Positions 56,101 to 59,100 of a stretch of DNA of 64,000 bases are shown piece after piece. The stretch lies in NCBI RefSeq assembly GCF_022846255.1, contig NZ_AP025682.1; one strand, 5' to 3'. Within the stretch, counting starts at the first letter, position 1; every line of letters starts with the position of its first letter. Position numbers: made by a program. This DNA comes from Escherichia coli (GTDB lineage Bacteria; Pseudomonadota; Gammaproteobacteria; Enterobacterales; Enterobacteriaceae).

Positions 56101-59100
56101 CTTGATAAAATTTTATGGAGGCTTAAGCCGGATGTTTATCCGATTGTGGAACTACGCGCGGCGATCTCATCAGTCTTTGATGTCGATGAACAAGAAGCAA
56201 TGATGTTATTGCAGGCTATTATTGGGTTAAAAATGATAAATGTGGATCTATCGTATACCATTCTCGAAACAGGTCTGATAAAAATAATTTCCAATGGTTA
56301 CTGCATAGGCCTGAACGCAAATGGATATTATTAGAAATTCAGTATGGTAATCTCATGACAGCGACGTGCTATCTGACGGGCTTTATCGCGTTTTGGATTT
56401 TGACAGAAATACCGATTTGTTGATTTTATTTGAAATAAAAAAGAAAGGACGAGTAAACCAATTCCATTCTCTCTTTCACAATTTACATATGGTGTGGATT
56501 CTCAACGAATAACCTGTAGGAAATATATCACCCCCTCATATTTGTTGATTGATGAGGAAAATATAACTAATGAAGACAGGAAACGGCGGGGTACGAATTA
56601 TAATATTATTAAAGAACTTGTAGAAGATAGAATGTTCATATTCAATTATGCATTTCATAAAAATCTCATTTATCGACAGAGTATTCTGGGAAAAAACAAA
56701 TCCCACAGCGTACTATCAGGACACTTCTGACTCTTTACTGGAAGTATGGGCAGGATATATATGCTTTACTGCCCGCATACCCGAACTGCGGTGGAGCAGG
56801 CAAGAGCAGAATCCGGCATGAGGTTAAACTCGGGAACGAAAAGAAAAACAGAATGTTACCTAATATACGCTCAGATGTCTATATCCTTAATGAAGGGGAT
56901 ATAGAAAATATCAGAAAACCTCTGGCCAAGTACCATTATAAACTTCATGGAGAAACGATAAAAAAAACGGTGATGCTTCCAATTAGTAGAACATGTATTT
57001 TTCAATGAAGGCCCCGAGAACCTTTTCATGTAGCTCAATTGAGCGTGAAAAGCAGATTGTTTTGCGGGCCAGACGCTTGATGCGGGTTCTCAGCGTCAGA
57101 TTGTTACGCGCAATGCGCTGAGTGAATAGTTTGCCGGTCAGATGCTTTTCCTTAGCGACTTCTCTGGCATAACTTCCCCAGTCGTCGCTCGTTACCATGC
57201 CGATATTAAACGGGGTGAGCAGAGCCAGCAGCTCACGACAGGTTTCATCCGTTCGTGGATCGAACGTATAAGCAAGAACACCACCTGTTTTGGTGTTGTA
57301 GGCATACCAGAGCCAGTGCTGTCGGGCCTTGCTGCCGACAAAGCTCCACTGTTCATCGAGCTCGCAGATGAGCGCGACATCTGCATGAGCGACCGGAGAG
57401 GACGTTATTCTCTTTGGCGCGAGTTTTTTAAAGTGCGGATGACGGTATTTATTCCAATTTTGAGTGTCCTTGCGGTATCGCGGACACCTGCTCCGTTGAA
57501 CGCCATTTCGGTGATTTGCTCTTTGACGCCGGGCTTATGCGTATTTTCATGAACGGAGATCGCCCAATAACCGGTGATCGGGTTCAGATGGATATCTGTA
57601 AAATTGGCCCCGGCTTATATCAGTACACATCTATTGATGATTGCACTCGCTACAGAGTCCTGAGGCTCTACTCTCATCGCACGGCGGCAAACACACTGGA
57701 TTTTATTGATTGTGTTATTGAAGAAATGCCTTTCCCGATACAGCGCTTTCAGACAGACCGGGGAAGAGCATTTTTTGCCGTTAAAGTGCAGGAAAGATTA
57801 AAAGAATACGGCATCAAGTTTCGTCCAAATAAGCCAGCGTCGCCTCATCTTAACGGAAAGGTTGAACGTTCCCAAAAGACAGACAAAGCTGAGTTTTACG
57901 CTACCGTAGATCTTTCTGCTGATGACCTGAAGGAACTGCAGGCAGAATGGCAGCATTACTATAACTGGGAACGTCCTCATAGCGCTCACAACGGTAAAAC
58001 TCCGATGGAACGCTACTTTGAACTTGCTGAGAAAACACCATACTCTGATGCCGTTCATGCAAACTATCAGCCCAATGAAGAGCATATACAGGAACAGAAT
58101 TACAAGCTTGAACTTGGACTGAGAAAATTGAAACGATGCCTATGAATCACACATCTAATTGCTCCTTTTTTCGGTTGACAAAATCCATTTATGAATAAAA
58201 ACATCTCCAGATACAGGTGGTGAAAAAAGATATCCTTGCAAATATTCTATTCCTTTATTTTTCATGGCTTTTTCCTGCTCTATAGTTTCGATACCTTCAG
58301 CAACGACCTTAATATGTAATCGTCTTGCCAACATAGCTATACTATCTACTATTGCTTCGGATATTTTATTTGATTCACACTGTTGGATGAAAGATTTATC
58401 CAGCTTAATAAAATCAACAGAGAAATCCTGTAAATAATGAAATGTAGAATATTCTACTCCAAAATCATCGAGGGCAAAAAGGACATTATGTTTTTGTAAT
58501 TTATCAATTATGGTATGAACTTCATTTGTATCTTGAAGTTTTTTCCTTTCTGATAATTCCAGTATAAGCTTGATTTTTTCCTTACCAAGTTGTTCTAGCA
58601 TTTGAACACATTGCTGCTCAAACTCAGGATACAGAATATTGTCTGAATTAACATTGATACCAATATGAAAATTATCTGGTATCAAATGATTTACATATTT
58701 AAATATGTTTTCAGTCTTTTTCATTAAAAGAGATGTTAAGGGAACAACCAAGTTAGAGGATTCCGCAATAGGAATAAATATTTCTGGAGAAATTATTCCT
58801 ATTTTGGGGTGAAACCATCGTAAAAGTACTTCACATCCGGTAAGACGCCCACTTACAGAACAGAATATGGGCTGAAAGTATGGGGTGAACTCTTGATTTT
58901 CTATCGCTCGGGAAATCAGTTCGGGAGTGATCACAAGGTACTTGTCTATATGATATGAATTCACAATTATAACTCTTCTATATATTTATATGGTTAAACA
59001 AAACTATAGCATAAATACATTCATTTTAGTTTTATTGCTATAAATACAAGACTGAGAAAAGTAAAAGACGTTATTAATGCAGATATACATAAGAGAATAT

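Follow-up and report, generated by a model that had tools for sequence, protein, structure and literature searches.

A truncated IS1-family element within a four-element scar beside the tib adhesin genes of Escherichia coli

How does an insertion sequence (IS) of the IS1 family come to stop partway through its own insA gene, and what lies beyond the break? This question is raised by a stretch of 64,000 nucleotides of Escherichia coli DNA (assembly GCF_022846255.1, contig NZ_AP025682.1), hereafter called the window, in which an earlier note had described a diverged IS1-family element at 56969-57557 that was truncated in insA and joined to a fragment of an IS481-like transposase. We consider it highly probable that this piece is the dead remnant of a known divergent IS1 element, and that it belongs to a scar of four elements extending from a truncated tnsB gene to the tib genes. 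Along the window the scar consists of the tnsB remnant, the IS1 piece (right end, insB', the A6C slip site, and insA codons 48-90), 34 bp of an ISEc12-like element, and nucleotides 439-1020 of an IS481-family element, beyond which follow a gene for an EAL-domain protein and the tib genes.

The presence of an IS1-family fragment on the minus strand is confirmed, far beyond what chance would give. It occupies 56969..57537 and, with numbering from the right end, represents nt 1-569 of a 765-766-bp element. All 569 bp align with the full-length copies L001 and L002 at 98.8% identity, and seven substitutions separate the fragment from active copies. The right inverted repeat, GGTGATGCTTCCAATTAGTAGAA, was read directly from the sequence at 56969..56991 on the same strand; it is alike in 18-19 of 23 positions to the left repeat of the full-length relatives and contains the insB stop codon (TAA, 56983-56985). 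The insB' frame is open over 148 codons plus this stop (56983..57429, minus strand), and its translation covers the whole 131-position profile of Pfam DDE_Tnp_IS1 (PF03400) with E=8.5e-71, so that the InsB-like similarity put forward in the earlier note proves significant. The NCBIfam model of IS1 transposases (NF033558) scores the fragment at 143 bits, with a cut-off of 100.

The motif for the -1 frameshift from insA to insB', TTTAAAAAAC (A6C), is retained at 57432-57423, also on the minus strand, and the -1 frame past it continues as InsB'. The slip site of the relatives is ATTAAAAAAC, and the flanking difference between the two is synonymous. What remains of insA (57405..57537, minus strand; codons 48-90 plus a stop codon at 57405-57407), as judged from the full-length InsA of a relative, matches Pfam HTH_Tnp_IS1 (PF12759) with E=2.4e-27 and retains the helix-turn-helix. 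The break falls 46.7 codons into the 90-codon gene, close to the 45 codons estimated in the earlier note. The diverged IS1-family character, the slip motif, and the terminal repeat enclosing the insB stop, all of them claimed there, hold as well. The piece is a fragment of a family member and not a complete element.

The left 196 bp of the element are gone, which leaves it without a left repeat, without a promoter, and without insA codons 1-46.7, the part that holds the zinc finger (C8xxC11...C31xxC34 in the InsA of a full-length relative). No left repeat or other piece of this IS1 was detected by blastn elsewhere in the window, and re-examination gave no full-length insA there, in agreement with the absence of a left end first remarked upon. 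Four of the seven substitutions alter InsB' residues, and the Glu of the QRIER motif has become Ala (codon 57109-57111, substitution at 57110), a change that the present analysis adds to the earlier description. When 90 diverse IS1-family proteins, obtained by searching 1.84 billion representatives, were aligned, 86 of 89 had Glu in this column, which lies 24 residues beyond the second near-invariant Asp; both Asp positions are kept in the fragment. We take the position to be the DDE glutamate of IS1. End binding by IS1 depends on the zinc finger as well as on the helix-turn-helix, and mobility is abolished when one IS1 end is deleted (PMC12903888). Judging from the missing left repeat, promoter, and zinc-finger half, together with Ala at the presumed DDE position, this copy is predicted to be dead; it would make no working transposase and would be unable to move as a two-ended element. 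No function is expected of it. The counts of a promoter and terminator scan were at shuffle expectation.

A residual function is nevertheless conceivable on paper, either through InsA' made by read-through (helix-turn-helix only) or InsA'B', which would regulate or mobilise IS1 copies, or through use of the right end in trans. The insA' and insB' frames are co-oriented with the upstream EAL and tib genes, a simple scan gave no terminator between the EAL gene and the fragment, so that read-through RNA is possible, and the insB' frame is intact along with the slip site. In addition, the non-synonymous character of four of the seven substitutions might conceivably point to an altered function, but such a high share also fits neutral decay. 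We regard a residual function as extremely improbable, because no promoter match was obtained, the ribosome-binding context is weak, the zinc finger that end binding requires is gone (PMC12903888), the conserved Glu is Ala, and one end only is left. Moreover, the E. coli genomes DS26-1 and 06-00048 have shed most of the fragment, 53-72 bp being left, without consequence.

What lies beyond the break in insA? According to the earlier note, the IS1 element ran to 57557 and met the IS481-like fragment directly, at a single junction near 57555-57560. Its start at 56969 is upheld, but not its end; alignment to the full-length relatives sets the limit of IS1 homology, and hence the break, at 57537. 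There are two junctions instead of one, 57537/57538 and 57571/57572, which are 34 bp apart, and the position proposed before falls inside the segment between them. This segment, TGCGTATTTTCATGAACGGAGATCGCCCAATAAC (57538..57571, plus strand), corresponds, as judged from its match to the ISEc12 termini, to the 34 bp at the very tip of the left inverted repeat in an ISEc12-like element of the IS21 family. It agrees with the left terminus at 31-32 of 34 positions, beginning exactly at ISEc12 nt 1, and its terminal TG stands flush with the IS1 break. Of the two versions of the ISEc12 repeat, it is that of the left end which agrees, not that of the right, and a blastn comparison of an element end with the window gave E=1e-7 over exactly nt 1-35. 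The same end runs on into the ISEc12 interior in at least 1893 E. coli records. Intact ISEc12 carries internal GGAGATCAC repeats, istA and istB, and a related right end; no istA, istB, right end, or other ISEc12 end was detected in the window. On the strength of this short match, we interpret the 34 bp as the probable remnant of an ISEc12 insertion into insA and its source as a putative IS21-family member. The residues HENTH, which had seemed to carry insA on to about 57557, arise by chance when this remnant is translated.

Might the 34 bp be filler, or similar to ISEc12 by chance? The segment is indeed short, and it departs from the ISEc12 consensus at three positions, at two of which it has the IS481 base of the matching offset. 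However, a match that is confined to exactly the end of an element, opens with the TG of its terminus right at the IS1 break, and follows the left-end version argues against filler, as do the thousands of E. coli ISEc12 ends that carry the 34-bp sequence, and we regard this explanation as very unlikely. We also tried to account for the 34 bp as the left end of an IS3-family element, as an IS3-type orfA follows the same sequence in one E. coli sequence (L008). This candidate was rejected, for additional copies identified the sequence as the ISEc12 terminus, with the IS3 element itself inserted just inside it.

The same stretch bears on the view that IS1 abuts IS481 directly at ~57555-57560, through a single deletion or the simple nesting of one in the other. 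Both fragments are truncated and near each other, blastn stretches the IS481 homology back to 57558, although with mismatches, and the insA frame is open through 57557. On the other hand, IS1 homology has ended at 57537, and the whole of 57538-57571 is accounted for by the ISEc12 left terminus from its first nucleotide. A hand comparison of the aligned sequences over 57558-57571 gave 12-13 of 14 agreeing positions for ISEc12 copies versus 9 of 14 for IS481. Furthermore, no terminal repeat of IS1 or IS481 is found at the junction, which indicates that neither was inserted into the other. We judge direct abutment to be exceedingly unlikely, and retain the reading of two junctions with an ISEc12 tip between them.

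On the far side of the second junction, the IS481-family fragment (57572..58153, plus strand) comprises nt 439-1020 of its element, with the integrase core (transposase codons ~133-323) and, at 58134-58153, the right repeat. It is without the first 438 bp and hence without a left end. Over 582 bp it differs at seven positions (98.8% identity) from the full-length IS481-family copies L005 and L006, which are 1020 bp long, end in perfect 20-bp repeats, and are flanked by 7-bp target duplications. The fragment is matched by Pfam rve and rve_3 and by NCBIfam NF033577 (E=2.1e-45), where it remains under the cut-off solely through the loss of 132 codons. The earlier note was thus right about the presence of an IS481-like transposase fragment, but not about its starting directly at the end of IS1. 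A further sign of decay is the change of its DRGREF motif to DRGRAF (A to C at 57769); the rest of the 191-codon frame is open. The right end of the IS481 fragment (58153) lies 1 nt from 58155-58157, where the EAL-domain gene on the minus strand has its stop codon, so that IS481 appears to have been inserted essentially at the 3' boundary of this gene, and the flanking TCTAATT would be a 7-bp target copy.

The double junction is not peculiar to the window. In DS26-1 and 06-00048 it is identical to the window at 133 of 135 bp, and a 55-bp probe across both junctions was covered to at least 80% in 20 of 5426 complete E. coli genomes. It adjoins tibA in every genome inspected and is carried by all tib-locus matches inspected, indicating that the scar is ancestral to these tib islands. 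The length of IS1 that remains beside it varies: 53 bp in DS26-1, next to an IS3-group element, and 72 bp in 06-00048, next to a module of the cyclic oligonucleotide-based antiphage signalling system (CBASS) type. The window has the most complete version of the IS1 piece of the three. The CBASS-type module of 06-00048 (SAVED, SMODS nucleotidyltransferase, and ThiF-like genes; L004 1094-5582) stands directly against the 72-bp IS1 residue, and different cargo has thus been brought next to one scar.

The left border of the IS1 piece leads to the fourth element. The gene yhiN is located at 54149-55348 (Pfam HI0933-like), and it is followed by a TnsA domain and then by a tnsB homologue, i.e., by decayed genes of a Tn7-like element (55479..56968, plus strand) that were recognised from Pfam TnsA-like and from homology to DS26-1. 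The tnsA gene is split into two open reading frames, and the first ~216 codons of tnsB that are left contain multiple frameshifts. Homology to tnsA/tnsB of DS26-1 ends at 56968/56969, where the intact right end of IS1 cuts tnsB at codon ~216; this interruption, too, was not part of the earlier note. Genomes of the DS26-1 type keep tnsB, tnsC, and tnsD between yhiN and tib, while the window is without them. Compared with DS26-1, the left arm is 94% identical in tnsA and 85.5% identical in the tnsB remnant, and the tib arm is 96.7% identical, the left arm thus being the more diverged of the two. The tnsB/IS1 junction of the window was found in none of the 5426 complete genomes.

We propose the following history of the scar. 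First, an ISEc12-like element of the IS21 family would have entered insA at codon 47, with its nt 1 flush with the IS1 break. A deletion would then have run from 34 bp inside ISEc12 to IS481 nt 438/439. Lost with it would be 196 bp at the left of IS1 and 438 bp at the 5' end of IS481, together with the remainder of ISEc12 and whatever DNA lay in between. The earlier note had offered a nested insertion or a deletion as alternatives; the history given here would involve both. An ISEc12 insertion followed by a deletion is the simplest order, because the tip of ISEc12 directly meets the IS1 break and no end of IS1 or IS481 is present at the junction. The ISEc12/IS481 junction shows a microhomology of merely 1-2 nt (C or CC), and the wider similarity of 7/18 is not meaningful. 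In a third step the double junction would have been passed on to all tib islands examined. In the fourth, the right end of IS1 would have become joined to tnsB in the lineage of the window; we favour either an IS1 insertion in tnsB with recombination between IS1 copies, or a crossover within IS1 that brought in the tib arm. Either route would have removed the rest of tnsB, tnsC, and tnsD, and so immobilised the island.

Several points weigh against this reading. No IS1 copy whose insA holds a complete ISEc12 was found, nor was a full IS481 next to the EAL gene in the 5426 complete genomes; as no intermediate state was found, the order of events is deduced from the anatomy of the junctions alone. 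Two of the three ISEc12 mismatches in the 34 bp are IS481 bases, and the inner junction is therefore placed no better than to 1-2 nt. As for the tnsB/IS1 junction, its origin by fresh insertion, by recombination, or by an old adjacent deletion is possible in each case. Lastly, the QRIER Glu is a putative catalytic residue, as suggested by its conservation and spacing and by the literature on the IS1 DDE triad.

The endpoint of the deletion, 34 bp into the ISEc12 left repeat, might also be the product of a site-specific hotspot, of breakage or of insertion, where the first IstA-site repeat of IS21-family ends has its inner edge, which could come about, for example, through insertion targeted to inverted repeats by an IS3-family transposase. 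A breakpoint after ISEc12 nt 34 or, in a related IS21-type end, after nt 32 does recur beside unrelated DNA in other E. coli genomes. The DNA at the recurring breakpoint consists of either end of an IS3-family element (L008, L009, L010, and L015) or of other sequence (L017), and in the window of IS481 interior. We think a hotspot unlikely here.

The IS3-family element at such sites (orfA beginning MPGQPI; ends TGTGTCAGCATAGTTGTCGC / TGTTTTTCAAGGTAGTTGTCGC) stands directly after ISEc12 nt 34 in both orientations (L008 2501-2560, L009 2501-2560, L010 2502-, and L015 2169-2260), and the same element is also found after nt 32 of the related IS21-type end. The 34 bp with an IS3-like junction occur in 250 E. 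coli records, which suggests insertion targeted to IS21-family terminal repeats. In L016 (2002-2092) there is, in addition, a mini-element of ~91 bp resembling a miniature inverted-repeat transposable element, which is made solely of a 32-bp IS21-type end joined to ~59 bp of an ISEc12-like left end in inverted orientation; the 32-bp end, TGCGTATTCCGCTCTATTCGATCACGGATTGG, is present at 4016 places in E. coli genomes.

Tn6230 is known to target an attachment site at yhiN (PMC11406308 Table 1). The tib adhesin island of the window, like that of L011, appears to sit inside a Tn7-like element of the Tn6230 type just downstream of yhiN, while the insertion site of the pathogenicity island (PAI) tibA 'remains elusive' according to a 2020 review (PMC7545054). 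The tib island can thus be regarded as Tn7-like cargo at yhiN, the transposition genes of which were deleted here at the IS1 end, leaving the island immobilised. The double junction is unlikely to have arisen twice and provides a compact marker for the common descent of tib islands. It also illustrates that a third element may leave short, easily missed remnants at seemingly simple IS-IS junctions, and that these can lengthen reading frames by chance. The IS1 fragment itself is ordinary, and it is useful only as a trace of earlier insertions and deletions.

Compared with canonical IS1 (IS1A of K-12), the element has the same architecture, namely insA, an A6C -1 frameshift, insB', and an insB stop inside the right repeat, as well as terminal repeats of ~23 bp of the type GGT(G/A)ATG.... 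It is nevertheless a distinct IS1 relative and not a K-12-type copy, as first supposed: identity to IS1A is 59.6% for DNA, 43% for the amino acids of InsB, and 51% for those of the InsA C-terminus. A blastn search of IS1A against the window with 11-nt words gave no match, the two being too divergent, and IS1A was compared through protein comparison and MAFFT. The element of the fragment is already known and widely annotated in dozens of E. coli genomes. It is an unnamed 765-766-bp E. coli IS1 element (e.g., WP_089569371.1, YZMc17-1), in which the right repeat, the slip site, and the frames are as in the fragment, and its full-length copies have, unlike the fragment, an intact InsA with the zinc finger. 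Full-length copies, to which PGAP gives the label 'IS1 family transposase', are present in 101 of 5426 complete E. coli genomes, and 94 of 110 places of full-length-type copies are plasmid-borne, many of them on virulence plasmids of enterotoxigenic E. coli (ETEC). The element is common on ETEC plasmids, e.g., those of E24377A and ETEC 1392/75 and NC_007635, the records of which give it only this generic label. L001 and L002 are flanked by 8-bp target duplications at two unrelated sites, indicating that the full-length element was recently active. The next closest named relatives, IS1N, ISEc30, and the common Klebsiella plasmid IS1, share its organisation and show 82-85% DNA identity over the full length. 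Two copies are usually called one IS in ISfinder at roughly 95% identity. Being under this level, the element is a family member separate from IS1N and ISEc30.

ISEc12 (IS21 family, 2574 bp, istA/istB) has in common with the 34 bp of the window the first of its GGAGATCAC-type repeats. The island resembles PAI tibA / ROD-13 of ETEC H10407, where tibC, tibA, LuxR-type and EAL genes, and many transposase remnants are found as in the window; PAI tibA holds '14 transposases and IS66' (PMC7545054). TibA differs in length among the islands, with 1047 aa in the window (59817-62960), 1202 aa in DS26-1 (L003 8286-11894), and 1240 aa in 06-00048 (L004 8286-12008), and gaps and repeat-shifted BLAST matches of tibA near 61600-62640 point to variation of repeat number in the passenger domain. 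With respect to the island of DS26-1, that of the window is a divergent allele (~96.7% identity) from which the greater part of the Tn7-like transposition module is gone.
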